Shown piece after piece: positions 2,329-41,897 of a DNA stretch of 64,000 nucleotides. Each line of letters begins with the position of its first letter. Position 1 is the stretch's first letter. The stretch comes from Dictyostelium discoideum (taxonomy: Eukaryota): positions 2,848,001 through 2,912,000 of the forward strand of contig CM000152.2 in assembly GCA_000004695.1 (NCBI GenBank). The letters run 5' to 3'. A model generated the notes under the pieces. That model did no database searches. It was not told the DNA's origin and saw nothing but the letters and a program-made list of their open reading frames with translations. Both the position numbers and the translations under genes were made by a program.

Positions 2329-2619
2329 TATTATAAAAGTAAGTTCATCATCTGATTATATCATATTGATTAATGATATCCCAGCTGGTAGTACGAAATC
2401 ATTTACTCAAATTGCAATGGATATTAAAGATTTACCACCAATGGATAATATTATTTTGAACGGTCTTAATATAAGAACTTTTAATTCACCTACTAGTAAA
2501 GGATACAGCAATATTCAAACTTTAAAATATATTACAAATTTCTATATTTTCATTAATCAAGGATATTCAGATTTTAGTGAATTTGCTTTAATTCCAAATC
2601 AAAATAACTTTAAAATAAT
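2329..2619 (+). CDS. copy 2, exon 4 (LINDIPAGSTKSFTQIAMDIKDLPPMDN..GYSDFSEFALIPNQNNFKI)
   Basis: Listed ORF 2366..2659. TTTTAG acceptor and GTATTT donor. It joins exon 5 in phase. Confidence 0.55.
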
Positions 2620-2702
2620 GTATTTATTATTATTTTTTAAAAAATCATTATTTATTTAATTTATATTAATAAAAATAAAAATAATAATAATATAATATAT
2701 AG

Positions 2703-5250
2703 ACAAATGGCAGGAAATTTATCACCAACACCAACTGGAATAATTGATTTAAGAAATTTATCAGGATTAAAACAATTAATATTATCGTTGGTTTCATCAG
2801 ATTTCAATTATCAAGGTCATATTCCACTTAATTTGCCACAAACAGTTAAAAATTTTCATATTTCCGATGGTTCATTTTCAGTTGGTGTAAAAGAGTTTTT
2901 GAATGCTTATCCGAATATCTCTATTGTTTCTATCCCAGGCAATCAAATTAACGCTAATTTTTCAGAATGGAAAAATAGAGGTTATGATCAATTTTCTATA
3001 AGTGAGAATAACTTTCAAGGAACTGTTGATTCATCATGGTGTACCACAATGACAACTTTATTAAAAAATAAATTGACAGGTGATTTACCATCATGTTTCG
3101 CTTGTCATTTGTATAATGAATATATTAATTTTACAGTATCTGAAAATCTTTTTAATCCTATTCTACCATGTACAACTTTAATACCAAATCTTAGATTCGA
3201 TTCATCAAGTAATATATTATATCTATATGGTGATGACTTGGGTTTCTATGAAACTGATATTAAAATAGTTTCATCACCAACAAAATCATTCAATCATTTA
3301 ATTTATTCAAAATTATTTTTTTGTGATAAATTTACTCAATCAAATTTACCAGAAATTTTAACTTTAGATTTTACAAGTGCAAATAAAACTTTTATATTAT
3401 CAACAGTTGAAAAACCACCATTAGTAGATTTAGTCACTGTTGCATCTTCATCTGCTTTATTATTTTTTGATGGATCATTTTTTAATTATAATAAATCATC
3501 AATTAAAATCAAAGTTGATGATTTAACATGTTTAATTACTCAAACTACATTTAATCAAACTAGTTGTCTAATTCAAGGATCATATAATAAGAATTCACTT
3601 GCTCAAATTACAATTACAGTAGAAAGTTATTATACAACTAAATTAAAAATATTACAAACAAACCTTTTTGCCTATTTAAATCAATCAACAACAGTTTATA
3701 GTTGTTCGTTGGATTGTAACTCACTTGGTGGTATTTGTAATACATTAATTGGTCAATGTTCATTTAATTGTCCAAATGATTGTACAAATTCTTTGGCAGG
3801 TACATGTAATAGTTCAACAGGAGTATGCAATTGTTATACTGATTTTCAAGGTTTAGATTGTTCATTACCATTTAAAGCTTGTACATCAGATTGTAGTTCA
3901 CCATTAAGTCAAGGTTCATGTAATAATCAAACTGGTATTTGTCAATGTATACCAAATTATCAAGGTTTAAATTGTAATATTCCATCACATTATATTACTT
4001 CAGTTATTCCATGTTCAATTGATGGTGGTGAAGTTTTAATTAATGGTTGGTTTGGTAATAATAATGATGGTACACATTTATTATCATCATATAATATAGT
4101 TATAGGTAGTTTAGATTGTATTGTTACATCAATTAATGAAACAGAAATTAAATGTAATCTTGGAGCAGGTACAGGTACAAAAAATATTAAAATTATAAAT
4201 TCAATTAATCCAAATGTAATTTTCAATGGTAATGGATTATTTAATTATCAAAATCCAATTAAAACTTGTCCAAATAGTTGTACAAGTTTAAATAATGGTA
4301 AATGTAATTCAAATACAGGTGAATGTCAATGTAACGATAAATTCATTGGTTTCGATTGTAGTACACCAATTAAAATCATTGAAAGTGCACCACCAACAAA
4401 TACATCAATCAATAAAGATACAGGAGGTATAGAACTTACCAATCAAGATACAATATATGAAATTTCAATTATATCATTAAATGAAATTTCAATTGATGGT
4501 TCAATTATAAAATCACATCAATTAAAAGGTAATTGGTCAAGCGATAATACAACAATAACACCAGATTCAAATTATTTCAAATTTTCACAAAAATTAATTA
4601 ATAATACATGTAAAATTACATTTACTATTGAAGAGATTAAATTAAAAGATAAGAACTTTACATTTGGAACGACAACGTTTAAAGTTGAAAAAGATTCAAT
4701 AAAATTATCAGTTTTAATTCAAGATTATCAATATCAAAGTTCATTAAATACATTACAATTAATATTTTATTCAGCAGTTGGAAATGATTCAAATTCTAAC
4801 AATGATGATTGTAATAAACAAGATACATCAATTGATACATCAAATGCAAATAATCAACAAATTTCAAATTATATTCAAATTTCTAAAAATTCAAAAACAT
4901 TAGTTGGTCGTTTCATTAATCAAGTAATTGCAGATTCAAGATCAACTTTTATGTCAAGTACAATTATTAAAGATAATAATAATAACTCATCGTCATCAGT
5001 TATGTTGGGATTAAATCTACCACATTGTAAAGAATGTTTAATTGATCCAGACTTTTCAGTATTAGTAAGTCCAGATTTTAAAGAATCATGCAATGAATCA
5101 ACAAATAAAAACAAATGGTTAATACCTGTCGTTGTCGTTGTACCTGTAGTAGGTTGTGCTGCAATTCTTACTCTATCTGTAGTTTTATATAAAAAATATA
5201 AATATAATTTAAAATTTATTGCAATCAAATTAAAACCATTTAAAGAATAA
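2703..5250 (+). CDS. copy 2, exon 5: LRR-like region, EGF-like modules, IPT/TIG-like domain, C-terminal domain, TM helix and short tail
   Basis: An 847-aa open frame (listed 2707..5250) preceded by an ATATATAG acceptor at 2701-2702. LRR-like NxLxGxLPxxxxxLxxL repeats. EGF-like CxxxCxxxxxGxCxxxxGxCxCxxxxxGxDC modules. A TIG-like segment (ITSVIPCSIDGGEVLINGWFGNN..NPNVIFNGNGLFNYQNP). TM segment WLIPVVVVVPVVGCAAILTLSVVLY. Confidence 0.9.
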
Positions 5251-7684: not shown

Positions 7685-10358
7685 ATTCTTTAATGGAGCT
7701 TTGATTTCACCATCTATTGTTGATTTAAGAAATTTAACTATATTAAATTATATTGATTTAAGAAATGTTATTTTAGATTTTAATTATCAAGGTAAAATTC
7801 CTCTTATTCTTCCTCAAAGTGTTACTAGTCTTGGTATTAGTGGAAGTTCTTTTTCTAGTGTTAATGAATTTATAGGAAATTATCCAAGAATTTCAACGAT
7901 TGCAATTTCTTTTAATCAAATTCCAGATAATTTTACAGAATGGAGAAATAGAGGTTATGCATCATTTGATGTAAATAATAATAAACTTCAAGGAACTATT
8001 GATTCGTCATGGTGTACTACTGTTTTAAAGATTGGTGATAATCAATTATCAGGTAAATTACCTTCTTGTTATACTTGTCATTTATTAAGTGATTATGTTA
8101 AATTTATGATTATTGGTGGTAAAAATTCATTTACAAATGTAGATCCAATACCAGAATGTACAACTTTAATACCAAACCTTAGATATAATTCCTCAACAAA
8201 AGAACTCACTCTATATGGTGATGATTTAGGTTTTTATACTGAAAATGTTATAGTACCAGGTTTTGATTATTCATTTTCTCCAAAGATTCAATCGAAATTA
8301 TTTGTAGCTAGTAATGTAATTCAATATGATTTACCCCAGATTTTAAATTTTAAATTTCCAGGAGCAAATAAAACATTTACATTATCAACAATTCAAAAAC
8401 CACCCATTATAAATACAGTAATAGCAACGGTTCAATCCTATTCTGTTATTTTAGAAGGATCATTTTTCAACTATAATATATCATCAATTGAAATCTTTAT
8501 TGGTGATGTTCAATGTTCAATAGTGTCTGCAACATTTTATAAAGTTGAATGTTTAACATTTGAAACATATGAGAAAAATATAATTGGAAAAGTTTCAATT
8601 AATATTAAAGATTATTACTATAGCAATTTAACAATATTAGAAACATCTGTAATTGCATATTTAAATCAAACTACACAAATTAAAAATTGTCAATTAGATT
8701 GTATCTCACTTGGTGGTTTTTGTAATACATTAATTGGTCAATGTAATATTGATTGTCCAAATAATTGTACTGGTTCATTATCAGGTACTTGTGAAAGATC
8801 AACAGGAGTTTGTATTTGTAATATTGGTTATCAAGGTATTGATTGTTCAGTACCAATTCATTCTTGTCCCTCAAATTGTAATGCTCAATCCAATCAAGGT
8901 ACATGTAATTATCAAAATGGTATTTGTCAATGTTCTCCAAATTATCAAGGTTTAGATTGTTCATTACCATTTAAAGTTTGTACATCAGATTGTAGTTCAC
9001 CATTAAATCAAGGTTCATGTAATAATCAAACTGGTATTTGTCAATGTATACCAAATTATCAAGGTTCAAATTGTAATATTCCATCACATTATATTACATC
9101 AGTTATTCCATGTTCAATTGATGGTGGTGAAGTTTTAATTAATGGTTGGTTTGGTAATAATAATGATGGTACAAATTTACTATCATCATATAATATTGTT
9201 ATAGGTAGTTTAGATTGTATTGTTACATCAATTAATGAAACAGAAATTAAATGTAATCTTGGAGCAGGTACAGGTACAAAAAATATTAAAATTATAAATT
9301 CAATTAATCCAAATGTAATTTTCAATGGTAATGGATTATTTAATTATCAAAATCCAATTAAAACTTGTCCAAATAGTTGTACAAGTTTAAATAATGGTAA
9401 ATGTAATTCAAATACAGGTGAATGTCAATGTAGTGATAAATTTAGTGGTTTCGATTGTAGTACTCCAATTACAATCATTGAAAGTGCACCACCAACAAAT
9501 ACATCAATCAATAAAGATACAGGAGGTATAGAACTTACCAATCAAGATACAATCTATGAAATTTCAATTATATCATTAAATGAAATTTCAATTGATGGTT
9601 CAATTATAAAATCACATCAATTAAAAGGTAATTGGTCAAGTGATAATACAACAATAACACCAGATTCAAATTATTTCAAATTTTCACAAAAACTAATTAA
9701 TAATACATGTAAAATTACATTCACTATTGAAGAGATTAAATTAAGAGATAAGAGTTTTACATTTGGAACAACAACGTTTAAAGTTGAAAAAGATTCAATA
9801 AAATTATCAGTTTTAATTCAAGATTATCAATATCAAAGTTCATTAAATACATTACAATTAATATTTTATTCAGCGGTTGGAGATGATACAAATTCAAATT
9901 CAAATAATGATTGTAATAAACAAGATACATCAATTGATACATCAAATGCAAATAATCAACAAATTTCAAATTATATTCAAATTTCTAAAAATTCAAAAAC
10001 ATTAGTCGGTCGTTTCATTAATCAAGTAATTGCAGATTCAAGATCAACTTTTATGTCAAGTACAATTATTAAAGATAATAATAAATCATCTTCATCATCA
10101 TCATCATCATCAGTTATGTTGGGACTAAATCTACCACATTGCAAAGAATGTTTAATTGATCCAGACTTTTCTGTATTAGTAAGTCCAGATTTTAAAGAAT
10201 CATGCAATGAATCAACAAATAAAAACAAATGGTTAATACCTGTCGTTGTCGTTGTACCTGTAGTAGGTTGTGCTGTAATTGCTACTATATCTATACTAAT
10301 GTATAGAAAGAATAGATATAGAATACAGCTTCTCAAACTAAGAACTTTTAAAAAATAA
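7685..10358 (+). CDS. copy 3, exon 5: LRR-like, five EGF-like modules, TIG-like, TM
   Basis: An 885-aa open frame (the track starts at TTG 7701). AAAG acceptor at 7683-7684. The 3' ~1.4 kb is near-identical to copy 2 and the 5' part is diverged. It carries a (TCA)n Ser expansion at ~10087-10110. Confidence 0.85.
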
Positions 10359-16347: not shown

Positions 16348-17495
16348 TTAAAATTCTTTTAAATTTTTACAAAGAGTACAACCTAAAATAAATTCTTCGA
16401 CATGAGGATGATCAACCTTAAGGGGACATTTATCAGGACCTTCACATCGAGGGATTTCGGTTTTGGGTATTTTGTTGAGGTACTTTCCGCCATTTTGAAT
16501 AGCGTGGCATTGGGAACAGAAGTGCGTCTTGCTCCAGCAATACCATTGAGCTATTGAACAACAAAACTGACATTTCCATATGATATAGTCCCAACCATGT
16601 ACTTTACATTCTTTTCCATCACTTCCCCTACAAGAACCACAAATTAAGTCTTCATCTTTGTAACCACCTTCTACACCTTCATCACAACGTGCTTGACCAG
16701 CAAAATAAAAACCTTTACATTTAAAGCAACTATAGTACACATATCTATCCATTGAGTAATTTTCAGGATCTTGATACCACTTTGAGTTTTTATCTTGAAT
16801 CTCTTTACATTTTGCTAAACCTTCATATGATAATCTTTCCATTGCTTTTGATTGAATGATTGCTTTATTCTTTAAGATTGGTTCTAAAATATGATTAATT
16901 GCAGGATGAGATTTCATTTGTTTCTTACATAGTGGACAATCTATATGATGAAAAGTAATTCTAGGACCTGTTTTACTTGTTAATTGTTTTTCAATACAAC
17001 CATAATGAAACATATGACCACAATCTAACATTATTGATGGAGCTGATTTAATTGAATCAACAAAGCAAATATTACAATATCCATCATTATTGAAATGTCC
17101 CTTTGGTACACAATCTACATCAAAACATGGTTCACATTTTTTCTCACCTTTAACACCAATACAATAATGACCACATGATAATTGTTTATCACAACAATTG
17201 TCCAATTTTTCTTTACATTCTTCAGAATCACAAATTTCACTTTGTTTTAAATTAATTCCAAAAGTTACTTTAATAGGTGATAAACAAAATCTACATTTTC
17301 TAGAATTTAAATATTCTGTATACTTTTCACAAGTATAAGAATAATGATAAGGTGAAGTTTTACAATCTGAACAAAATTCTGTTGTACAATTTGTACATCT
17401 AAATCTAAATTCTTCTCTATGTCTTGCTGATTCTTCATTCATTGTTGTACCATCAGGTGATAATAAATTTAATTTATTTCTTTTTTTTATTAAAT

Positions 17496-17526
<31 letters not shown>

Positions 17527-18174
17527 AGTTGTTGTTGTATTTGTATTATTATTATTATTTAAAGAATTTGAAGAATAATTTGAATTTGAAGAAGTTGATA
17601 ATAATGAAGTTATTGAAGTAAATGAAGAATTTGATAATGAATTTGATAAAGATTGTGGTAATGGTGAAGTTGAAGCTGAAGTTGTAGCTGTTGTATTTGC
17701 AGAAGATATTAAAGGTGGTGATAATGGTGGTTGTTGAATTCTTTCAAAAACTTCTTGACAATTTGGACATTTAATAAAGTTATCATTGTTATGAAGTACT
17801 TGTTCCAATTGTTTATTTAAAAGTTGTTCATACTCTGAATCATTTAATACCATTCGAATCATTGTATCTTGAATTTTTTCATTGCAATCCACATGGATAC
17901 AATGTATTTGACCCAATGATGATCCTTCATCCATTTGATCATTAATTTGATTGAGTATACCATTCTTTAAACATGATTTACAAAAATTATGTAAACAATC
18001 ATCCATTAAAAATAAATAATCTGGTTGTGTTTCAAAATTCTTTTTACATATAATACAATGTGATAACATATCTTGATCACGATTTGAATCTTCTTCTTCT
18101 TCTCCTTCACTTAATAACATTCTTAAAACTTCTGGATCAATTGATCCATTTAATTCAAAATTTGTTTGTTGATA

Positions 18175-18210
<36 letters not shown>

Positions 18211-18416
18211 ATTATAATTATAATTATAATTATTTTCGTAAAAAACATTACTTGAACCACTACTTTTACAAGATGAGGAAGAAGTTGTTGTTGTTGTTGT
18301 CGTTGTCGTTTGAAATGGATTATAGTATCCATTATTTTTTATATTATTATTTATATTATTATTATTATTATTGAAATTATAATTATTATTATAATTACTA
18401 TTTATATTATTTAAAC

Positions 18417-18506
<90 letters not shown>

Positions 18507-18964
18507 TATTATTATTATTATTTAAATTATTTGTTACTATTGATAATAATTTCTTTTGACTATCTAATATTTGATTTATATTTGTTACATCTCTAAAAGA
18601 TGAGGAGGGTGACGTTTTTGAACTATTATTGCTACTATTACTACTACTACTACTACTACTGTTACTACTATTACTACCACTTCTACCTTTTGTTACAGAA
18701 TCTAAAACGAACCATTCATCCATATTATATTCGATATCATCTGGTGTAGTTATTGTAGCTCTTATATGAATTTGACCAACCATACCAAATGAACTATTAT
18801 TATTTAGATCTAACCAATTTTCAAAAACATTCTCTTTTGCTATGGTCTCTAATGAAAGTGTTGCAAATCCTATATCATTATTCTTTATAAACATTTCATT
18901 ATCCCAAACATATAATATAATATTTGGTTGTGGTTTTAATAATCTATCACTTTCTTTAATTTCT
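16348..18964 (-). CDS. C2-domain / RING-IBR-RING (RBR-type) E3 ubiquitin ligase-like protein, main exon
   Basis: The listed 848-aa ORF extends upstream in frame to an AAAATAG acceptor at forward 18965-18966. The N-terminal end carries C2 beta-strands (EIKESDRLLKPQPNIILYVWDNEMFIKNNDIGFATLSL). RING-like CIICKK..CLHNFCKSC. IBR-like FIKCPNCQEVF and RCTNCTTEFCSDC. A second RING-like CNICFVDS..CGHMFHYGC. Very long poly-N tracts. Confidence 0.8.
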
Positions 18965-22072: not shown

Positions 22073-22225
22073 ATAATAATTATTTTATTTTTAATTTTAT
22101 AAATTAAATAAAATAGTATTATTAATGATGATATAATTATAATATTTTTATTTTTTTTCATAAAAATTAATTTCATTTGTTGTTATTGGTTAGAGAGTGT
22201 TGTTACCTCTTTGGTTCCAACAAAA

Positions 22226-22760
22226 ATGAATTGATCAAAAGATAATGCTTAACCACAAGCTTTGACGATTCTTGAACGAGCAGTTTCAGTGAATCTTAAT
22301 GATTAAACAAACAGTGAGTAGTCTAATCTATATTTTTTATTTTCAATTAATCCTTAATTAATTTCTGTTTTTTTGTAAAGGATGTGGGTTTACCATTAAT
22401 TTCTATATTTGAAATAAGTTATTATTTCATCAATTGATATTAAAATACTTCCTGGTACGAAACCTTTCTGATTATTGCTAATAGTTTTTGGGTGAATGGG
22501 TATTAATCTATTATTGATTGCTAATGATTGAATTTTATATTTACAGTTTGCCAGAGTGACCAGTCTCCAGTTTTTTTTTAGTTCTAGATAACCTTCTTTG
22601 GAATTGAGACAACCAGTCTTTTTTTATATTCATTTTTGATGAGACACGGATTCTTTAATGTGCTTCCAAATTGAATCAATTCAAAAGACTTTTTTTGAGT
22701 TTGAGGATGAGCATTTAATCAATGTAGAAAGTGTAATGAATTGTTTAATATTAAAAAGTT
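22226..22760 (-). mobile_element. degenerate, internally deleted fragment of an older TRE-type non-LTR retrotransposon
   Basis: 22440-22700 is about 70% similar to the ORF2 interior of the adjacent full-length element (compare CCTGGTACGAAACCTTT..TTTATAT.TACAGTT.GCCAG at 24896-25020). 22226-22250 carries the ORF2 C-terminal 18-mer TGAATTGATCAAAAGATA, also present at 22921-22938. Confidence 0.45.
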
Positions 22761-22788
22761 TTTAACAGCATTCATATAATATTATTTA

Positions 22789-22819
<31 letters not shown>

Positions 22820-22917
22820 TGGATTAACAAGATTGATATATGTCCATCTGTGTTAATACGAGTTTTTATTTAATATTTATTTATAGGCTTATCATTTAAG
22901 CTGAAGGGTTATTTTAA

Positions 22918-25900
22918 TCATATGAATTGATCAAAAGATATAATATTTGGGAGAGATGATTCTGGAATACAATAGTAATTAGCTGTTGTTTTTCTTAGCT
23001 TGATCGTTGAGGTGAGAAGGATCTTAGGATCTTTGAAATTATTATGGTCTTTTGCTGATAAGTTTTTCAGATCTTTTGCTTTTTTGATGTATTCTAGAGT
23101 GGCCAATTTGTGCCATTTCTTTAGAAGGGAGCTGTATGATAATGATTCATTTGTTAAAGGATCTTCACTGTATATTTGATTGCAAATCCAAATCCAAATG
23201 TTGTGGAGGATAAGGGCCATTAGGTTTCTATATGCGAATGATCTGGTTAGATCATAGTCTATTGCTTTATAGTTCCATTCAAAGTATTCTTTGTGGAATC
23301 TGTGGTTGGCGTAATCTGCATTCACTTCTTGATCTTTTTTGGCTGTCGGTGATAATTTTGGAGTTATTCTATTAATGAAATTGTTATTTTGCCTAATTCT
23401 TGTATGATGCCAGTTTTTACCTTTGCCTGTGGTAATATAGATGAAATTTTTGAGTTTATTTATTTTTATGAATTGTTTTGTTTTCTTGCATGAGAAGAAC
23501 AGGTGACCGTATGGGTCTTTGCTCATATCTTCTTTGCAGAGTGGGCATTGTTTGTTGTGAAGGTAGTTTATTGGAAGGCATCTGGCATGGAATCTAAACA
23601 TTGTGTCTCTTGTTTTAGGGTCTTTTATCTTCAGTATGTTGTTGAAGAGTTGATTATAGCTGTAGCCTCTTAAGTTTAGAGATGATTGGATTTCCGTTTT
23701 AGGGATGGTTGGATTTTGGTCTTGAATTGTGGTATACCATTCTGCCAGTGAAAGTGGTTGTCCATTTTCGTTTTTTATGGATGTGAGATTATTGTTGAAG
23801 ATTGCTTTTTTGATTCTTATTTTGTTCCATTCGTCTAAGTTTTCTTTTAGGTATCTGGATGTGAATTTGTTTTTTTGGATTTGATATTCCCAGCTTTTGT
23901 GATGAGATGAGTTTGTTTGTTTGGTTTCTAGTGCTAGGATGAATTGGTTTATGATCCAAAGTTTCTGCGCCAGTTGTCTCAATTCTATATTCCAAATGTT
24001 CCAGCCCCCTACTTTTAGTGGGTATCTTGCTCTTTTGGTTCTCATTAAATTAATAACTTGAAATCCACTAGCATTTTTGTTGTTTGGTGCCGATAAAAAC
24101 CATTCGACTAATTTATTGATTTGGTTTAATTCCTCTTCCTTAAAGTTCTCTACATATGAATAGTAGGTTAATTTAGAGAGTGCGAATGCTTTGAGGATGT
24201 TGGTTTTGGTTTTGATTGTTGAGTCAGTGGTTTTCCATAGTACTAAGGATGATCTTATTGTGTTTAATATTTCTGGCATTTTTCTTGTTATCCCTTTGCC
24301 TGTGAAGAAGTATCCCAAGTATCTTTCTGGATTTGTAGATATTGGAATTCTTTGGTTGGTATTGTCTGGGTTGCCTATAAGAATTGATGAAGATTTGTCG
24401 ATGTTTAGTTTTGAGGAAGTGGCTTTGCAAAATGAATTGAAGTGTTGTAGTACTAATTCAAGTTGTTGAAAGTCTGGGACCATTGAAGCCGAGTCGTCTG
24501 CAAAGCTTTGGAATTTCTCTCTGTGGTTGCTGTTGTTTAGAGGAAGGCCAGTAATTCGGTCATCTTGTAAAATTTTTCTAGCTAAAGCCTCTATTACAAG
24601 GACGAACAGGGTGGGTGATAGTGGATCTCCTTGTTTAACTCCTCTTTTGATCTCAAAGGGTATAGTAGTTCTTCCATTAATTTCAATTCTTGCTTCAGAT
24701 TTGGTGAGTAGATTCATTATCAGGTTGATTATATTGGTTGGAATGTTGATGTGTTGTAGTGATCTAAGTATTGAACCGTGTGAGATCGAGTCAAAAGCTT
24801 TTTCGAAATCATATAGTGTAATTATTCCGTTAATTCTTTTATCATTACAATAGTTGATTAATTCGTTCATTGATATGATATTATCTAGAATGAATCTGCC
24901 TGGTACGAAACCTTTTTGATTGTGGTTGATCACTTTCGTTAGTATTGGGATTATTCTATTGTTTATTAGTTTTGAGTGGATTTTATATATACAGTTAGCC
25001 AGTGTAATTGGTCTTCTGTTTTTGATTAGTTCGGGGTCTCCCTTTTTAGGTATCGTGATAATGAGGCCTTCTTTGTAATTTTTGCTAATTAGATGAGGAT
25101 TTCTTAGAGTGTCGTTGAATGCTGAGGCCAGTATTGGAGCTAGTTTTTCTTTGTGTGTTATGTAGAATAAGTTTGGAATTCCATCTGGGCCTGGAGATTT
25201 GTGTGGGTTCAATTGTTTTATTACTTCTAGGATCTCTTGTGATGTGAATTCATTTTCAAGGTTGTCCCATGTTGAGTCCCTGGTCACTGTCCAATTTTCC
25301 AACATTTCATAATGAGATGGTGGGTCATCTTCTTTGTAGTCATAAAGATTTGAGTAATATTTTACGTATTCTTCTTCGATCAATTCCTGTTTGTTGATTG
25401 TTCTACCTTGTGCATCTTTTACTGCGTTGATGGTGAAATCATTGTGTCTTTTCTTGATTCTCGCGGAGATGTACTTGAGTGAGGTTTCTTCGCAATAGTT
25501 GTTCAATTCTTGTTTAAGTTGTTCTTCTCTTTTTTTAGATTCATTTATTGCTGAAAGGGTTGCGAAGGCTTGGTCTTTAAATTCTGTCTCTAGTAGGGAG
25601 ATTAGATTTTTGATGTTTGCCTTATTGTTGTAGTCATTTTGTTTTTGAAATTCTGTGTATAGTTGTTTTATTTTGTTTAGTAAGCTGTTGAGTTGAGAGA
25701 AGGAAATAGAGTTATGGTTGGATGACAGCTCCCTTGAATAATCGTTAAGTAGGAAGTCTATTTTCTTAAGCATTATGCTTGAGAGGATTGAGGATTTTTT
25801 TAATCTCCATCTGCGCTTGTTCATCTGTATGTTGGGTAGAGTGAAGGTGGTTGATAGGAAGTTGTGATCTGATAGAGGTATGTCATTAATTTTTGGGGGG

Positions 25901-26517
25901 ATTAGGTTCCTTAAGTATAATTGGCTGTAGTTGATTATGCTATTGTTAAGGTATATTCTGTCTAGTCTCCTTTCCAAGATTCTTGTGAGGTTATTGTTTG
26001 TGTTGTGTATCGTTCTTGAGAAGGTGGGTCTTTTATTTAGTTGGTCCATATCCATTAGGTTATTTGAAATTCTGATGGCTTCGATTACTGTGGCCATCTC
26101 ATCTGGGGATTGTGTTGTCAAGTTGCCTTGGTCATCATTTGATGTGTGATTGTCATTGAAGTCTAAACAGTTGAAGTCGCCTGCTATGATGTCGATGTTT
26201 TTATTAGGGTTAGACGTTAGGTTGTGGTATTGGTTGTTGAAGTGTTTGTTTAGTGTTGAAGCTAGTGTTTTTCTTTTATCAGGTTGGGCCGGGGCGTATA
26301 TGGCCAAGATTCTCGTTGTGGTATCTTTTATTAGAATGTCTGATATTATTAGTCTACCTTCTATTATGAATATTGGTGAGAGTTTTATGTTTTGGTTGTT
26401 GTGGTTTAGTATTCCTATTCCGTTGCCTCTGTTGGTTGCGCTAATGATGGAGCCAGGAAATAGCTGGTGTGCTTGTGTTGCGTCGGCGTTGAGTTCATTG
26501 ACTATGGTTAGTGCCAA
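22918..26517 (-). CDS. retroelement ORF2: apurinic-like endonuclease + reverse transcriptase (1199 aa)
   Basis: N-terminal APE-like region (LAIYAPAQPDKRKTL..IIAGDFNC). RT motifs ITLYDFEKAFDSISH, KRGVKQGDPLSP, QSFADDSA (FADD box). C-terminal Cys/His region CPLCKED..HLFFSC. Confidence 0.9.
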   Translation of the reverse strand: MALTIVNELNADATQAHQLFPGSIISATNRGNGIGILNHNNQNIKLSPIFIIEGRLIISDILIKDTTTRILAIYAPAQPDKRKTLASTLNKHFNNQYHNLTSNPNKNIDIIAGDFNCLDFNDNHTSNDDQGNLTTQSPDEMATVIEAIRISNNLMDMDQLNKRPTFSRTIHNTNNNLTRILERRLDRIYLNNSIINYSQLYLRNLIPPKINDIPLSDHNFLSTTFTLPNIQMNKRRWRLKKSSILSSIMLKKIDFLLNDYSRELSSNHNSISFSQLNSLLNKIKQLYTEFQKQNDYNNKANIKNLISLLETEFKDQAFATLSAINESKKREEQLKQELNNYCEETSLKYISARIKKRHNDFTINAVKDAQGRTINKQELIEEEYVKYYSNLYDYKEDDPPSHYEMLENWTVTRDSTWDNLENEFTSQEILEVIKQLNPHKSPGPDGIPNLFYITHKEKLAPILASAFNDTLRNPHLISKNYKEGLIITIPKKGDPELIKNRRPITLANCIYKIHSKLINNRIIPILTKVINHNQKGFVPGRFILDNIISMNELINYCNDKRINGIITLYDFEKAFDSISHGSILRSLQHINIPTNIINLIMNLLTKSEARIEINGRTTIPFEIKRGVKQGDPLSPTLFVLVIEALARKILQDDRITGLPLNNSNHREKFQSFADDSASMVPDFQQLELVLQHFNSFCKATSSKLNIDKSSSILIGNPDNTNQRIPISTNPERYLGYFFTGKGITRKMPEILNTIRSSLVLWKTTDSTIKTKTNILKAFALSKLTYYSYVENFKEEELNQINKLVEWFLSAPNNKNASGFQVINLMRTKRARYPLKVGGWNIWNIELRQLAQKLWIINQFILALETKQTNSSHHKSWEYQIQKNKFTSRYLKENLDEWNKIRIKKAIFNNNLTSIKNENGQPLSLAEWYTTIQDQNPTIPKTEIQSSLNLRGYSYNQLFNNILKIKDPKTRDTMFRFHARCLPINYLHNKQCPLCKEDMSKDPYGHLFFSCKKTKQFIKINKLKNFIYITTGKGKNWHHTRIRQNNNFINRITPKLSPTAKKDQEVNADYANHRFHKEYFEWNYKAIDYDLTRSFAYRNLMALILHNIWIWICNQIYSEDPLTNESLSYSSLLKKWHKLATLEYIKKAKDLKNLSAKDHNNFKDPKILLTSTIKLRKTTANYYCIPESSLPNIISFDQFI

Positions 26518-26621
26518 TGAGTTTGGGGGGGATTGGGATTTGATAAAGTCTGTTTTGTTTTTGAAGGAGGTGTCAGTGCCCCAACCTCTGACATTCCATT
26601 GGTTGATTTTGATTACTACTA

Positions 26622-27872
26622 TTATGAGATGATATCGATCTCCTCTTGGGAGTCGTATAGCTGCGGTTTGGATGGTGAAGGGTAGATACTCTCTATGAAG
26701 CTCTCAATGATTCCTTTCCTTTCTTTTTTGACAGGTGTCTTAGGGGTGGATGGGATGTAAGGGTTGCTTCTGTTTATTGTTGGTGAGAGTTGGGTGACTT
26801 CATTGTTTGAGTGGATTTCCTCGTTCTTGCGTTTATGTGATGGAGGGATGTTTAGTGTCTTCTCTCTGTTTTCCGAGGATGAATGGATGTTAGTGCTTGT
26901 TTTGTTGGCATTGTCTTTTTGGATGGCGTTGGATGTTGTGGTAGTGGTTGTGGTGGGTTTGACAGATTGAGATTCTGCTGGGTTTTTGGGGGGAAGAGGT
27001 TGAGATGACTTTTTTGCTTGGGCTTTTTTCTCTTGTGTTGATTGTTTATCAGACTGATTGTTTGCTGAGTTGTTTGTTTGTTGTTGTGGTTTTGGTTGAG
27101 AGGATTTGATTGCTATCCTGTTTTGAGTGTTAGGAGGATCTGTCATCTCATCTTCTAATGGTTCCTCCGTGTTGTTTGTCTCTACTTTCTTGTTTTTCTT
27201 TTGTGAGGAGTAGGTTTTGGTGGCCGTTCTGATGGTAAAGTTTGCGATTTCTGTAATGTGTTGGCCAGATTTCATTTGATCGCCTATTTTGCATTCTATT
27301 AGACCGAATACTATGAGGTGGTCGGTGGAGTATATAGTATTGTATATTGCATAGGGTATTTCTTCTGCAAAGGCAGTTTTGATGAGGGCGTCCACTATTC
27401 CTGCCTTTTCTCTGGGAATTCTTACTCTTCCTGTGAGGACGTGGAAGTCTCTACTGGAGGTGATGAAGGTTCCCAATTTGCTTCTATCTCTAATGATATT
27501 TAGGAGAGATTGTTCGTTTTTAATCATCAGGTGGATCATTTTTCTAGTTCCTTTGCCTATGTATATCTTGTCGATTGGGATATCGTAGTTTGAGAGTGTT
27601 TTTCTCATTTCTTCTAACCCCTTGAGATCCATTTTGGGGAATTCGAGTGTAATTGGGTAGAATCCGTTGTTCTTCTCGTAGGTTGAGAGCGCAGTCATGT
27701 TCAATATGGTCTCGCAGTATTTGGAGATGTCTTTGAGGCCTATTGATAGTTTGGGGTAAGTTTCCTTTGTCTCTGCTGTTTTTGTGGAGAATTCCTTAAT
27801 GAAGTTCTCCGATGCCTCGTCCATATGGGTGGAGGGGTTGGCCATTTTAGCCGCGTCTGCGTAGGAATTCAT
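26622..27872 (-). CDS. retroelement ORF1 (416 aa, basic/low-complexity C-terminal half)
   Basis: Intact ATG ORF directly upstream of ORF2 on the same strand, with a 104-nt spacer. Typical ORF1/ORF2 layout of TRE/L1-like elements. Confidence 0.75.
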   Translation of the reverse strand: MNSYADAAKMANPSTHMDEASENFIKEFSTKTAETKETYPKLSIGLKDISKYCETILNMTALSTYEKNNGFYPITLEFPKMDLKGLEEMRKTLSNYDIPIDKIYIGKGTRKMIHLMIKNEQSLLNIIRDRSKLGTFITSSRDFHVLTGRVRIPREKAGIVDALIKTAFAEEIPYAIYNTIYSTDHLIVFGLIECKIGDQMKSGQHITEIANFTIRTATKTYSSQKKNKKVETNNTEEPLEDEMTDPPNTQNRIAIKSSQPKPQQQTNNSANNQSDKQSTQEKKAQAKKSSQPLPPKNPAESQSVKPTTTTTTTSNAIQKDNANKTSTNIHSSSENREKTLNIPPSHKRKNEEIHSNNEVTQLSPTINRSNPYIPSTPKTPVKKERKGIIESFIESIYPSPSKPQLYDSQEEIDIIS

Positions 27873-28077
27873 CTCGATGGGATTCCTTTGAATCGGCGAT
27901 TTGGTAAGTTAGATCTGTAGATCGTGGTGGATTGGTGATTTTTTTCGAAAGATTGGTTAAAATTGACCGAGATTAAGGATAGAAAAGGATGAATTACTTT
28001 TCACGTGTATCTTGTATCCTCTTGATAGCCAATATAATATTAATTGTGAGTTCCTTTATTTACTGACAATTCATTAA

Positions 28078-28089
28078 AGGAATCGAACC
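28078..28089 (-). promoter_or_regulatory. external B box (ex-B box) downstream of the tRNA gene
   Basis: The minus strand reads GGGTTCGATTCC about 35 nt 3' of the tRNA. This matches the GGTTCGANTCC B-box consensus and the extra downstream B boxes described for Dictyostelium tRNA genes. Confidence 0.45.
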
Positions 28090-28113
28090 CTTTGTCTAAG
28101 TTGGGAAGACCCC

Positions 28114-28119
28114 AAAAAA
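28114..28119 (-). terminator. Pol III oligo(T) terminator of the tRNA gene
   Basis: The minus strand reads TTTTTT a few nt past the discriminator base. Confidence 0.55.
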
Positions 28120-28123
28120 TATA

Positions 28124-28197
28124 CGAGACCATCAGGGGTCGAACCTGAGACCTACCGGTTCGTAGCCGGTCGTTATATCCAACTAAACTATAGTCCC
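28124..28197 (-). tRNA. tRNA-Arg (anticodon ACG)
   Basis: The minus strand reads GGGACTATAGTTTAGTTGGATATAACGACCGGCTACGAACCGGTAGGTCTCAGGTTCGACCCCTGATGGTCTCG. It folds as a cloverleaf with a 7-bp acceptor stem (two G-U pairs) and anticodon stem ACCGG/CCGGT around loop CTACGAA. The T arm is TCAGG-TTCGACC-CCTGA. A-box-like TAGTTTAGTTGG and B-box GGTTCGACCCC are present. 74 nt, no encoded CCA. Confidence 0.85.
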
Positions 28198-28239
28198 TTT
28201 GATATTTTTCAAAGAAAAATAGATAAAATATATATTACT

Positions 28240-30034
28240 ATTCACCTTAAACTCAACAATAGAAATAATAAAACGAGAGATTAACACAAAAGAGGATATG
28301 GAACCAATCATAACATTTTATGATTTTGAAAAAGCATTCGATTCAATCTCACATAACGCCATTCTACGTACTCTTGCACATCTAAAACTACCACTCAAAA
28401 TGGTCCTCACAATAATGAACTTACTCAATGAATCAGAAACATCAGTGTACATCAATAACTCATTATCTAAAAGCTTTACATCAAAAAGAGGAACCAAACA
28501 AGGTGATCCTATCTCTCCCACTATCTTCGCATTAGTGGTTGAATGCATGGCAACTACTATAATAAATGACCGCTGCATCAATGGTGTAACCAAAGAAACC
28601 ATTAAAATACTACAGTTCGCCGATGATACAGCAACAATAGCATACAACTTTATGGACCATTTCCTCATGAATGAATGGATCAAGAAGTTTTGCCAAGCAA
28701 CCAGCGCAAAAATAAACCAAACCAAATGCTCGTGTATCACTTTCAAATGGAACACCAGAACGCTATACACCGTCATAAAATCAAACGAAAGGTACCTCGG
28801 CTTTGACTTCAACAATAAGGGTATCAAATCCAAAATCAATACAATCTCAGACAACATCAGAGCTAAACTAGTAACATGGAACTCAACTTCATCAACCTAT
28901 ATGGGCAGACTCATAATGGCAAAAACATATGCACTATCTCAGTTAACGTTCCACACTTACATCAACACCACACCACAACACAATAGTATTGAAAATAACA
29001 TCGTAAAATTCGTTTTCAACACAAAATCTAAAAACTCTCTTTCACTACAAAGAAGACAAAACAACTATATCAATGGTGGCCTAAACTTATGGAACCTGAA
29101 GACAAGAGAACTAGCACAGAAAGCATGGTTATTCGAAAGATACCTCCACCAAAGAGTAAGTAACACTCCTAGTTCATATATAAAACTGTGGGAAGAGGAA
29201 CTCAAAAACAACAACAACAACAAAACAACAACAAAACAAAATCAACTACAACTACACTGGCAATGCAAGCAAGCATGGACCCAATTAAAAACTCCACAAA
29301 ATAAACAAACACACTACGAACACCTCCCAAAATTAAAAAAAATATACGAGGATATGATGACAACTCAATCTCCTGAACACAACAAATTCATACCAACTCC
29401 TGGCCAAAAAGAAATAATGACCAAAATTAATAGCAAACACCTTCCATTTAAAGAAATCAAAAAAATAATAAACATGAAAGGTAGAGATCTATTATGGAGA
29501 TACACACTGAAAGCACTACCAAAAATATACAACATGCCATGCCAACAGTGTGGGGAAGATGAGACCTCAGAACATATATTCTTCAACTGCAAAGCCCACA
29601 TCAAAAACACACAAGAAATCTTCAACTACACCCTAACTAAGTGTGGACACACCACTCACACCTGGAATGTGAAGATTTTAAACCATCTACAAATTGCACT
29701 AGTAGCCAATTTAATAGCTATTATATTCGATAAAATCTGGCACAAAAGAAATAAACTCATTCACGATGAAAAAGAAATAATAATTCACAGACAACAAGTC
29801 ATACGTGAACTAATTAAAACACAAAGAGCTGCATGGGACAGGACACAAGCGGTTATAAACAAAACATTAAGAATCAAATCAAAGCAACGGCCAGAAGAAC
29901 AAAATAAATTAGACTCACTAATCTCGCTAAAGCTATTACAATTTAGCAGACAATGGAACTCACCTCTTCACGCAATAGAACTTCCTAAACATCTCAAAAA
30001 ATACAATAATTCACTCAGTACTTTCTATAAATAA

Positions 30035-30092
<58 letters not shown>
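28240..30092 (+). mobile_element. 5'-truncated non-LTR retrotransposon of a different family (TRE5-like by position: upstream of the tRNA, divergent orientation, truncated 5' end within ~15-100 bp of tRNA nt +1), ending in an ~57-nt oligo(A)
   Basis: An RT-only ORF fragment followed directly by A-run 30036-30092. It shares only ~40% identity with the ORF2 of the downstream element, so it is a distinct family. Confidence 0.7.
28298..30034 (+). CDS. truncated ORF2 fragment (RT domain to C-terminal Cys/His region, 578 aa) of the upstream retroelement
   Basis: FYDFEKAFDSISH, KRGTKQGDPISP, LQFADDTA (FADD), C-terminal CQQCGEDETSEHIFFNC. No endonuclease domain and no ORF1. Confidence 0.8.
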   Translation: MEPIITFYDFEKAFDSISHNAILRTLAHLKLPLKMVLTIMNLLNESETSVYINNSLSKSFTSKRGTKQGDPISPTIFALVVECMATTIINDRCINGVTKETIKILQFADDTATIAYNFMDHFLMNEWIKKFCQATSAKINQTKCSCITFKWNTRTLYTVIKSNERYLGFDFNNKGIKSKINTISDNIRAKLVTWNSTSSTYMGRLIMAKTYALSQLTFHTYINTTPQHNSIENNIVKFVFNTKSKNSLSLQRRQNNYINGGLNLWNLKTRELAQKAWLFERYLHQRVSNTPSSYIKLWEEELKNNNNNKTTTKQNQLQLHWQCKQAWTQLKTPQNKQTHYEHLPKLKKIYEDMMTTQSPEHNKFIPTPGQKEIMTKINSKHLPFKEIKKIINMKGRDLLWRYTLKALPKIYNMPCQQCGEDETSEHIFFNCKAHIKNTQEIFNYTLTKCGHTTHTWNVKILNHLQIALVANLIAIIFDKIWHKRNKLIHDEKEIIIHRQQVIRELIKTQRAAWDRTQAVINKTLRIKSKQRPEEQNKLDSLISLKLLQFSRQWNSPLHAIELPKHLKKYNNSLSTFYK

Positions 30093-30097
<5 letters not shown>

Positions 30098-30460
30098 GGA
30101 ACCCAAGTTAATCAGAAAATTTCCAGATTTTTAACTTTTTAAAGAAAAATATAAAAAATAGAAAGAAAATAAAATGAAAATCACAAACAACACCACAAAT
30201 ATTAAGCAACACAAATGCCTACAAAAAATAAGCGAAATTGTGGATAAAACTCAATTAAAAAAAAAACAATTCAAATACGTCATAAACATCAATCACGAAC
30301 CAGACGATAAAATAAAAAAAGATTTAGAAAAAAGTTTGGACAAAAAAGATGTTTTAATCAAAAGTAATAATACAATTCAAAATTCGAAACAAAAAAAAAA
30401 AAAAAAAAAAAAGTAAACTAACCCCTCTTTTAGAGACCCTGTAAAAAAAAAAAAAAAAAT
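30093..30460 (+). other. A-rich strand-asymmetric segment with successive oligo(A) tracts (30392-30417, 30443-30459); possible 3' module or stacked 3' ends of retroelements
   Basis: Strong A over T on the + strand, unlike typical intergenic DNA here. Oligo(A) runs recur. Listed ORF 30174..30416 is low-complexity K/N-rich. Confidence 0.3.
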
Positions 30461-31113
30461 AAAATAAAATGAGATCTAGCATCTCAAGGAGAAGCAAATA
30501 ATAATTGCGTTATCCAATTCAAAAAAAAAAATATATATTACTATTTTCCAATTCAAAAAAAAATATTCTTAAAATATAAATAATACAAAAAATAATCCAT
30601 GATCAAAATTAATTAAACCGGGTTGATATTATAATTATTAAATAAAATCTATTCACCCTTAACAAACAAACTTTCCAAAATTATATTTAATATTTTTAAT
30701 TAAAAAAAACATTTATTCAAATTTAACCACCTTTGATCTATTTTGTGGGTATTTTGAACTTATTATTGTAAGAAAAAGATAATATCAAATTTTTACATAA
30801 TTCCTATTTATTTATAAATTTCTTAATTAAATTTTAAGTGAATTACTATTTATTTTTAAGTACGATAATTATATTTGAAAATTTATCTACATATTAAAAA
30901 AAATTATAACTCTCTCAATTATAAGTTTTTTTTGTGTATTTTAACAATATAATTTTAAGTCAACATATAATTATTTAAGTTTTTTTTTAATTTAAAATAA
31001 TTCTATTTTTTTTTAAATATATAAATTACTTAATTTTTTTAAAAAAAGTATAAATTCTATTTTTTTTTTTTTAATTTATTATTATTGTTTATTAAAGTAT
31101 TATACATTTTAAA

Positions 31114-32771: not shown

Positions 32772-33316
32772 ATGAATGGTAACAGTAAAGTCCATACAGA
32801 AGAAAATAAAAACGAACATCAACAAGAAGGGAAAGGAGGAGAACAAGAACAAGAACAAATAAATAAACATATAAATAAAGATACAATCAATAATAATAAT
32901 AATAATAATAATAGTATGTCAATGGAAATGGATATAAACTCAGTTAGTGTAAACTCACTCTCTGAACCAACACCTAACGAACAACAAAATAACAATAATA
33001 ATAATAATAGTAATGGTAATGGTAATGGTAATGATGAAACTACATCTTCAAAAACAACAACGATAATTAATAGTAATCCTTTAGATACAGATACAATAAT
33101 GCATTTAAATAATAATGATAGTAGTAATAATACTACTACTACTACTATCCCACGACAATCATCCTCTTCAATACAAAATGGTATTCATAAAGAAGAGAAT
33201 ATAAATCAATTAACAGAAATACAACTACAACCATCACTACAAATAATGGACAAAGAACAACAAATGAATGGTATTGAGGAAAGTACTACTATAGCAACTC
33301 AAACTACATTACCAAC

Positions 33317-33384
<68 letters not shown>

Positions 33385-33629
33385 TATTGGAAAAAGAAAG
33401 TAATGGTGTACAAGAGATTGAAGATTCACCAAATCATCTTTCACTAAAAAGAAAACTTATGATTTTAGAGGAAATGGGTTTGATTTCTGATGATAATAAT
33501 AAAAATAATAATAATAATAGTATAGATATACCCAATAGTAATCGATTAAATCAAATACCTTCTTCTTATAAAACTTCACTCTATATTTGTTTATATCCAA
33601 TAGGATATGCCATTGATAATATATATAAA
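32772..33629 (+). CDS. N/Q-rich low-complexity protein gene, exon 1
   Basis: ATG ORF. GTAAAT donor at 33630, phase 0. Confidence 0.5.
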
Positions 33630-33758
33630 GTAAATATATATATAATATACATTATAGTAATTCATTTCTATTTATATACACCATAGTATCTCATTCCTTT
33701 TATTATTAACACATAATTCTATTTATTCACTTCCCCACCCGCTTCGAATAATAATTAG

Positions 33759-34633: not shown

Positions 34634-37193
<2,560 letters not shown>

Positions 37194-41025: not shown

Positions 41026-41897
41026 TTATTTTTCAACCAATTCTTTCCATTGATTTGATTCATCATCAAATTCAAAATGATGATCAATTGAAGAACCAAG
41101 TAATAATAAAATTGAATCATCAATATTTAATACACTTGCTAATGAAACCAATTGATAATTTTCTTTTTTATTCATATAATCATCAGCTTCATCACCTGCG
41201 AAAATTCTCCAACCAGAATCATTTGGAAAGGTTCCATTCTCTCTAAAGATGTAACCAATGTGTTCTTTATCAACCAAAATACGATTACTAACCAAACATA
41301 ATTGATCAAATAATTGTTTGATTGAACCTGGTACACAATCTAAATCTGGATGATATAATTGATTTGGTTGATTATAAATCGAGAGGATATTATAATCAAA
41401 AAATTCGATTCTATCACCCAATTTCAATGATTTCAATTGATATGGATTATTATCCAATAATCCAGTGAATTTAATTGAATTATAACTAAACTCATCCATA
41501 TTATTATTACTACTATTTGGACTTCTAAGACCACCACCACTTCCATTATTTGATTGACTATTTACAAGTTTATTCTTTTCATCTTTATGAATATTTTTAG
41601 ATGAAGATGAAGATGATGAACCATTTTCATTTTCTTCATCACCATTATTATTATTATTATTATTATTACTTCCATGGAAAATTTCAATACCTTGTTTTAA
41701 TGATTGACCACAACTATTACTACTGGCAATATCATTGTTTGAATCATAAAGACATAGATCAATAATCTCAACAAACATTCTCTCTGCTTGATTACCTTCA
41801 CTAAAAATTAATTTAACTAAATCACCTTGTTTTAAATTTAATATTTGTTCTCTACTTGGTAAAGAGAATGTATATTTAAATTCATTTCCTCTTGTTA
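41026..41897 (-). CDS. hypothetical protein, exon 2 (contains listed ORF 41026..41778)
   Basis: AAAAAAAG acceptor at forward 41898-41899. The frame is open upstream of the listed Met (VTRGNEFKYTFSLPSREQILNLKQGDLVKLIFSEGNQAER-MFVEIIDL..). The C-terminal half is conserved-looking and not low-complexity (GWRIFAGDEADDY..VLNIDDSILLLLGSSIDHHFEFDD). The family was not recognised. Confidence 0.55.

Follow-up and report, generated by a model that had tools for sequence, protein, structure and literature searches.

Retrotransposon insertions on both sides of a tRNA-Arg(ACG) gene in Dictyostelium discoideum

How many separate events are needed to explain a tRNA gene that is enclosed on both sides by retroelement sequences, and did the gene itself guide them to their places? 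The question is raised by a 64,000-nucleotide (nt) stretch of Dictyostelium discoideum DNA (contig CM000152.2, positions 2,848,001 to 2,912,000; hereafter the window, whose numbering is used throughout), in which a 74-nt tRNA-Arg(ACG) gene on the minus strand (28124-28197) is bordered downstream by a 5.2-kb retroelement and the decayed remnant of another one and upstream by a truncated element of a different type. The arrangement is best read as one D. discoideum tRNA gene that has been hit at least three times by tRNA-gene-targeted non-long terminal repeat (non-LTR) retrotransposons (TREs), a reading to which we assign a probability of about 93%. The window is extremely AT-rich, and the open reading frames (ORFs) of the region match Dictyostelium discoideum proteins from D. 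discoideum assemblies with 99-100% identity. The TRE cluster lies within one intergenic gap, with ComC/EGF-like and RING-finger genes on one side and Spt20-like and PP2C genes on the other; the RING-finger gene is situated near 16.3-18.9 kb and the Spt20-like gene near 32.8-37.2 kb.

Such an arrangement is an already known phenomenon and matches the published descriptions. At least one TRE has been reported for 61% of the D. discoideum tRNA genes and both TRE5 and TRE3 for 13%, and repeated hits at tRNA genes form TRE-TRE tandems (PMC5006619, PMC5391098). Nothing substantive distinguishes the present locus from these cases of tandem formation and dual occupancy; the tandem in the window combines members of two TRE3 lineages, with the older member in advanced decay. 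The locus offers a clear illustration of retrotransposon targeting directed by RNA polymerase III (Pol III), in which junctions, duplications and the order of events are readable, and its value is mainly one of annotation.

Insertion sites relative to the tRNA gene

The tRNA-Arg(ACG) gene is the single tRNA gene found by ARAGORN in the 64 kb, and the functional fold on which the proposal of a landing pad depends is borne out by this call together with the Rfam match (RF00005, 57.9 bits, E = 1e-10). It contains an internal B box (28135-28145, minus strand, GGTTCGACCCC) that was found by pattern match and an A-box-like motif (TAGTTTAGTTGG, tRNA positions 8-19, minus strand) that was recognized by eye, and a run of six T residues resembling a Pol III terminator (28114-28119, minus strand, read from the sequence) begins 5 nt past its 3' end. 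The external B box that the initial annotation had placed nearby was located at 28079-28089 (minus strand, GGTTCGATTCC), 34 nt past the 3' end of the gene. The B-box consensus GGTTCGANNCC has two matches in 64 kb, both at this tRNA gene, and since 0.02 matches are expected by chance, the external box is considered to be real.

Both flanking elements keep the distances published for their types. On the downstream side, the 5.2-kb TRE3-type element shares the strand of the tRNA gene, and its 5' end at 28029-28031 is separated from the gene by 93-95 nt and from the external B box by 48-50 nt, in accordance with the orientation and the spacing of about 50-100 bp given initially. TRE3 elements integrate 40-150 bp past the end of a tRNA gene, oriented like the gene and positioned relative to an internal or external B box (PMC5911963), typically about 100 bp downstream and often past the external B box (PMC5006619, PMC5911963, PMC5391098). 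On the upstream side, the TRE5-A element begins inside its reverse transcriptase (RT) domain at 28243/28244 and is oriented divergently, 46-47 nt from tRNA position +1 (28197); a divergent, 5'-truncated element within some 15-100 bp of +1 had been noted initially, and 46 nt was measured. TRE5 elements insert about 50 bp upstream in opposite orientation (PMC5006619, PMC5911963, PMC5391098), and for TRE5-A the interval is 47 +/- 3 bp upstream of +1 (PMC5391098, PMC5911963). Both window elements are hence inside the published ranges (46 nt versus 47 +/- 3 bp; 93 nt versus 40-150 bp), and each is enclosed by a target-site duplication (28032-28042/22774-22784 and 28229-28242/30532-30545). Positions, orientations and element architecture all agree with a tRNA gene that serves as a landing pad for TRE3 downstream and TRE5 upstream. 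The ORFs carry RVT_1 and weak endonuclease and zf-RVT matches, and neither LTRs nor integrase or recombinase domains were present, which sets the elements apart from DIRS-1, Skipper and DGLT-A.

The same geometry recurs at other loci. TRE3-type copies lie on the strand of the tRNA gene 77 nt after a tRNA-Asp(GTC) gene (locus L007) and 89 nt after another tRNA-Arg(ACG) gene (L008), and TRE5-A copies lie divergently at 46 nt (L004), about 46 nt (L008) and 48 nt (L002) from the respective tRNA gene. All upstream-type copies whose context was examined adjoin a tRNA gene divergently (L002, L004, L005, L006, L008). In a matrix of pairwise RT identities, the window copy of the downstream type groups with P0001, P0003 and P0106 and that of the upstream type with P0085, P0089-91, P0095 and P0097; identity between the two groups is about 30-35%, and the lineages cluster by the side of the tRNA gene on which they are found. 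Between the two window families, the identity of about 40% given initially was lowered to 33% over 468 amino acids (aa). The count of at least three insertions from two families likewise needs a refinement: three insertions and two subfamilies stand, and the lineages are three in number, i.e., TRE5-A, the TRE3-A type and a third, TRE3-like one.

The two downstream elements and their order

The young TRE3-type non-LTR retrotransposon downstream of the tRNA gene extends from 22785 to 28031 on the minus strand (about 5.2 kb) and is nearly identical to copies in L001 (99.3%, 5,249 bp), L007 (99.0%) and L008 (99.4%). Its ORF1 (26622-27872, minus strand, 416 aa) matched no Pfam family, and an ORF1 of equal length is called in the L001 copy. 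ORF2 (22918-26703, minus strand) starts with a sequence resembling an endonuclease (KINQWNVRGW...) and also contains a Cys/His motif and an RT domain; its frame, -1 relative to that of ORF1, is open from 26703, the overlap with ORF1 amounts to 82 nt, and an in-frame ATG is missing around the endonuclease start, which fits the -1 frameshift published for TRE3-A (PMC5911963). The RT domain was recognized as RVT_1 with an E value of 4.6e-33. The apparent domain order of ORF2 would be endonuclease, RT and zinc finger, the first and last below the Pfam cut-offs: Exo_endo_phos reached 18.7 bits (cut-off, 24.5; E = 0.0016) with full coverage of the profile, and zf-RVT reached 16 bits (cut-off, 27.5; E = 0.019).

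The element ends in a tail of 26 A residues (22789-22814, minus strand) followed by TAAA. At the opposite end, the family sequence begins at 28029 (GCTATCAAGAGG) and is preceded by two filler nucleotides (TG, 28030-28031), so that 5,215 bp of family sequence (28029-22815) stand 5' of the tail. The complete copies in L001 and L007 have (A)nCCGTACC ahead of GCTATCAAGAGG, and the window copy lacks about 7-17 nt of the 5' terminus. The designation of this element as full length with a poly(A) tail has to be corrected to near full length: the two open ORFs and the A26 tail are present, and the extreme 5' terminus is replaced by the filler. Both junctions abut an exact 11-bp target-site duplication, TAATATTATAT, at 28032-28042 (5' copy, minus strand) and 22774-22784 (3' copy, minus strand). 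A match of at least 11 nt has a probability of about 0.006 for random AT-rich 25-mer pairs from the window, and the L001 copy is likewise flanked by an 11-nt duplication. As both of its ORFs are open, the young copy might act as a source element, the slight loss at the 5' terminus aside.

Judged by length, architecture and copy number, the downstream 5.2-kb element is likely to be TRE3-A (formerly Tdd-3). The likeness comprises a length of about 5.2 kb, two ORFs with ORF2 in the -1 frame, the poly(A) tail and the target-site duplication, furthermore the order of endonuclease, RT and zinc finger, though the first and last of these matches are weak here, and finally the orientation of the tRNA gene, the position 93 nt downstream beyond the external B box and the membership in the most abundant lineage of its type (PMC5911963, PMC5006619). 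The window copy differs by the missing nucleotides of the family 5' terminus. An assignment to TRE3-B or another TRE3 subfamily appears unlikely. TRE3-A and TRE3-B have similar lengths, with intact copies in both, and a 58% identical sister lineage exists (P0003) that is equally unnamed; however, the L007 copy, whose 5' end is complete, measures about 5,225 bp and deviates by 4 bp from the TRE3-A consensus (5,229 bp) and by 54 bp from that of TRE3-B (5,279 bp; TRE3-C, 4,734 bp; PMC5006619 Table 1). The protein cluster of the young element, with 79 members the largest found, versus a single member for P0003, agrees with TRE3-A as the most abundant TRE3. All cluster members are named "hypothetical protein," and there is no TRE label among them.

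Directly past the 3' duplication of the young element lies a degraded TRE3-like remnant of about 630 bp (about 22145-22773, minus strand), which contains a frameshifted piece of RT interrupted by stops. Its RT core (22448-22638, minus strand) is 74.6% identical to the young element over 138 nt by blastn and 71.8% identical over 188 nt by local alignment. In blastx searches (E = 1e-15 to 1e-18), its identity to residues about 467-556 of the young ORF2 was 57.6%; P0003 gave 59%, and the RTs of the TRE5 (upstream) type gave about 50% over shorter spans. A three-frame translation revealed both frameshifts and stop codons. An exact 19-mer from the end of the young ORF2 (22226-22244, minus strand) occurs in collinear position, with LSFDQFI compared to ISFDQFI at the protein level, and about 65 nt farther, after a short stretch resembling a 3' untranslated region, an oligo(A) follows (22145-22158, minus strand, AAAAAAAATAAAAA). 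These matches support the interpretation of the remnant as an old copy from a different TRE3-like lineage that is 5'-truncated and probably internally deleted. An older related copy at about 70% nucleotide similarity had been postulated at this place; the relationship was confirmed (72-75% identity of the RT core at the nucleotide level, about 58% at the amino acid level), whereas the internal deletion is deduced from the RT core and the 19-mer.

It has to be considered whether the remnant is an independent insertion at all or stems from 3' transduction, a local rearrangement with the young element or a chance RT-like stretch. Its clear homology spans only about 190 nt, no close copy was found elsewhere, and a convincing target-site duplication of its own is missing. 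On the other hand, the remnant is situated outside both the poly(A) tail and the 3' duplication of the young element, and its strand and position agree with the behavior of TRE3. With 72-75% identity to the young element and an equal distance to P0003, it is no recent copy of the former, and the blastx E values of 1e-15 to 1e-18 rule out chance. We consider a non-independent origin highly improbable. The loci of P0095 and P0097 were inspected as a source family of the remnant and gave no match; both represent other upstream-type elements adjoining tRNA genes.

Taking out the young element together with one of the two duplication copies leaves a continuous sequence that leads from the tRNA flank into the remnant, and because the duplication of the young element splits this sequence, the remnant was in place first. 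An allele without the TRE3-type copy is expected to read CACAATTAATATTATATGAATGCTGTT with a single TAATATTATAT. In the proposed scenario, a TRE3-like element would first have settled on the downstream side, oriented like the tRNA gene, and later decayed to the remnant of about 630 bp; the TRE3-A-type element would then have inserted 93 nt downstream of the gene, creating the 11-bp duplication and displacing the remnant by 5.2 kb. The suggestion that the newest insertion had pushed an older copy away from the tRNA gene is in line with the condition of the two elements, namely about 99% identity to other copies and open ORFs in the young one and decay in the remnant. The TRE5-A insertion on the other side would have occurred independently and may have come before, between or after the two downstream insertions.

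The reconstructed pre-insertion site holds a 42-nt block (AAATAAAGGAACTCACAATTAATATTATATGAATGCTGT) that starts 61 nt past the tRNA-Arg gene. It was split by the young TRE3-type insertion (AAATAAAGGAACTCACAATTAATATTATAT|GAATGCTGT) into a proximal part of 31 nt (28032-28062, minus strand) and a continuation at 22773-22762. The block matches L007 (6810-6849; 93%, E = 6e-13), where it starts 64 nt past the tRNA-Asp gene; it can be written as AAATAAAGGAAC(TC)ACAATTAATATTATATGAATGCTGT. The L007 block is likewise split by a TRE3-type insertion, near the start of the block (duplication, AAATAAAGGAA). Past the block, the window and L007 sequences are unrelated, and no retroelement coding sequence was seen after it in L007. 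An origin by 3' transduction was rejected for the block, as the L007 flank also contains sequence located 5' of the element in the window. By the ordinary reading, the block may represent the 5' end of the old TRE3 copy, in which case the young element would have hit the old one about 31 nt from its 5' end; a target-site duplication of the remnant that would correspond to such a 5' end was searched for and not found. A more doubtful idea is that the block represents an undescribed short repeat downstream of tRNA genes, be it a tRNA-targeted element of miniature size or a preferred nicking site of TRE3-A. If true, a recurrent TRE3-A target or miniature element would mean that sequence contributes to a targeting that is now explained only by the distance from the Pol III complex.

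The upstream TRE5-A element and its 3' end

By its module architecture and its copies elsewhere, the upstream element is a 5'-truncated TRE5-A (formerly DRE; deposited reference, X57034, PMC5006619 supplement) of about 2.29 kb (28243-30531, plus strand). It is collinear with L002 (6299-8617, 83-85% identity) and L004 (9788-11594, 98.8%). The 3' part of ORF2 (28244-30034, plus strand) is open and in frame from the junction onward and encodes the C-terminal two-thirds of the RT and a Cys/His motif. It is followed by an internal tract of 57 A residues (30037-30093, plus strand), a 3' B-module (30094-30413, plus strand) with the start ATG of ORF1 at 30174, a C-module (30414-30520, plus strand; 107 nt plus the flanking A-runs, a length that is approximate) and a tail of 11 A residues (30521-30531, plus strand). 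Exact copies of a 14-bp target-site duplication, TATATATTACTATT, adjoin the two junctions (5' copy, 28229-28242; 3' copy, 30532-30545; plus strand); their length increases to 18 nt if the AAAA at 28225-28228 is counted, and a match of at least 14 nt is expected by chance with a probability of about 0.002.

The identification as TRE5-A depends on the modules beyond the A57 tract. A 3' duplicate of the B-module of about 290 bp that includes the ORF1 translation start is specific for TRE5-A and absent from TRE5-B and TRE5-C, and the layout of TRE5-A is AB-ORF1/ORF2-BC (PMC3159450). The window region 30051-30385 matches the L002 element twice, once in the 5' part (3151-3483, which includes the start of ORF1) and once in the 3' part, and the 80-aa ORF at 30174 corresponds to the N terminus of the L002 ORF1 up to ...SNNT. 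The C-module of TRE5-A has a size of about 134-137 bp with a structured terminal part of about 54 nt, for which stem-disrupting mutations at C38, A35, C26 and T15, numbered from the 3' end, have been described. Counted from the last non-A base (30520), all four published positions match, and the 3' 54 nt are predicted to fold with a minimum free energy of -11.3 kcal/mol (z = -3.1), placing T15, C26, A35 and C38 in stems.

The initial annotation had let the element end at the A-run around 30092 and had proposed a search for a duplication there. This A-run is internal, the end is at 30531, and the boundary was thus misplaced by about 440 bp; no target-site duplication was found at 30092. The end coordinate of 30500 given initially for the whole arrangement therefore falls within the element. 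Two insertions on the upstream side, a truncated element ending at 30093 and an older fragment (30094-30531) that was pushed outward, would account for the 57-nt A-run immediately after the ORF2 stop codon and for the further oligo(A)s at about 30391-30413 and 30521-30531. However, the succession of ORF2, A-tract, B-module and C-module is collinear in L002, a full-length relative beside a tRNA-Val gene from a different species-level lineage (D. cf. discoideum; tract of 38 A residues), whose alignment crosses the A-run to 30416 and then covers 30417-30531, and also in the 98.8% identical D. discoideum copy of L004, which ends exactly at the position equivalent to 30531. Moreover, the 14-18-bp duplication encloses the entire stretch 28243-30531 and nothing is duplicated at 30093, and the order is that of the published AB-ORF1/ORF2-BC layout (PMC3159450). 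Two upstream insertions are therefore extremely improbable, and we regard the upstream sequence as one TRE5-A insertion. For repeat annotation, it follows that in TRE5-A, with its long internal A-tract after ORF2, the first poly(A) does not mark the end of the element.

In common with TRE5-A, the window copy has the RT and Cys/His motif of ORF2, the 3' B-module with the ORF1 start, the terminal C-module, the oligo(A), the target-site duplication and the insertion 46 nt upstream of a tRNA gene in opposite orientation (PMC3159450, PMC5391098). It differs from TRE5-A in its length of about 2.29 kb compared to the 5,647-bp consensus, the A-module, the 5' B-module, the whole of ORF1 and the endonuclease-coding half of ORF2 being absent, and can thus no longer act autonomously. 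The element would have entered 46 nt ahead of tRNA +1, its 5' end toward the tRNA gene; the truncation inside ORF2 would have arisen during reverse transcription, and the 14-18-bp duplication would stem from the same event.

Three observations concern related elements at other loci. The full-length TRE5-A-like element of L002 appears to contain about four tandem units of about 205 nt that resemble the A-module, i.e., the promoter module, ahead of its B-module (about 2443-3150). The element of L006 (5721-7766), located divergently upstream of a tRNA-Leu(TAA) gene, encodes an RT (P0097) that is only 37% identical to that of TRE5-A, yet its end is 87.5% identical to the TRE5-A C-module, which fits the published sharing of the C-module by TRE5-C. 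In L001, three adjacent minus-strand matches (7769-8234, 74-83%) to the C-module region of the window (30382-30563) are found just past a TRE3-type tandem and near two tRNA-Thr genes, and they may represent stacked 3' remnants of TRE5.

Mechanism, reservations and flanking observations

The following mechanism is adopted from the literature. The element endonuclease would nick the target, and the RT would copy the polyadenylated RNA from the nick by target-primed reverse transcription; where integration takes place would be determined by the Pol III transcription complex assembled at the tRNA gene. In the case of TRE5-A, the ORF1 protein contacts TFIIIB, and for TRE3 the spacing from the B box, the TFIIIC binding site, has been described (PMC5006619, PMC5911963, PMC5391098). 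Ty3 (and Ty1) of yeast likewise orient themselves by the Pol III transcription complex to integrate safely beside tRNA genes (PMC5911963). In contrast, the Ty elements have LTRs and an integrase and insert upstream only, whereas the window elements are non-LTR retrotransposons with poly(A), one family of which resides downstream.

Alternatively, the cluster could have arisen by segmental duplication of a block consisting of a tRNA gene and its transposable elements, e.g., from the tRNA-Arg(ACG) locus in L008, rather than by independent targeted integrations. At L008, a gene for the same isoacceptor likewise has TRE5-A on its upstream and TRE3-type copies on its downstream side. However, the two loci agree neither in the tRNA flanks nor in the truncation points, the junctions or the duplications, and the young TRE3-type element and the TRE5-A of the window each possess their own duplication. 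A segmental duplication is scarcely credible on these grounds.

Several points weigh against the interpretation of the locus as three targeted TRE insertions or qualify its details. The targeting mechanism is taken from published work and would apply here by analogy. The TRE subfamily names were derived from architecture, length and copy number; TRE3-A is most likely for the downstream element, with TRE3-B as a less likely alternative. In the TRE3-type ORF2, the Pfam matches of the endonuclease and the zinc finger are weak, being under the curated cut-offs. The older remnant contributes most of the other reservations: the candidate for its duplication is a 9-mer with a chance probability of about 2.5% and is unconvincing, no other copy was matched closely, a homology search with a conceptual 105-aa peptide gave no hit, and its internal deletion is inferred from the RT core and one exact 19-mer. 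Finally, no empty-site allele was obtained from other isolates, and searches for the exact products of two flanking ORFs (32772-33686, 16348-18894) returned no record, probably because the flanking genes are spliced or strain variable. Look-ups of the same kind for the AX4 proteins P0112 and P0117 also found no record.

Stacked TRE3-type copies are present in L001 as a tandem pair and in L008 as three successively 5'-truncated copies. In L008 (1-7913), a full-length TRE5-A lies divergently upstream of the tRNA-Arg(ACG) gene and the three TRE3-type copies, each with poly(A), lie downstream; the copy nearest to the tRNA gene has the duplication AAAGGTACCC.

Some observations were made in the flanking parts of the window. 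A stretch of 145 nt beside the Spt20-like ORFs (34654-34798) is 80.7% identical to part of a transposon-rich locus (L003, 3064-3200). Directly after an ORF with the Spt20 SEP domain, an ORF of 773 aa (34872-37193) has no Pfam match and lies in a region of extremely biased strand composition, with a GC skew down to -0.73 and an AT skew up to +0.61; it is probably a low-complexity coding part of the same spliced gene as the SEP domain ORF. On the minus strand, a 250-aa ORF (41026-41778) strongly matches the Imm33 immunity-protein domain (E = 1.4e-33), a family that is usually described in bacteria.

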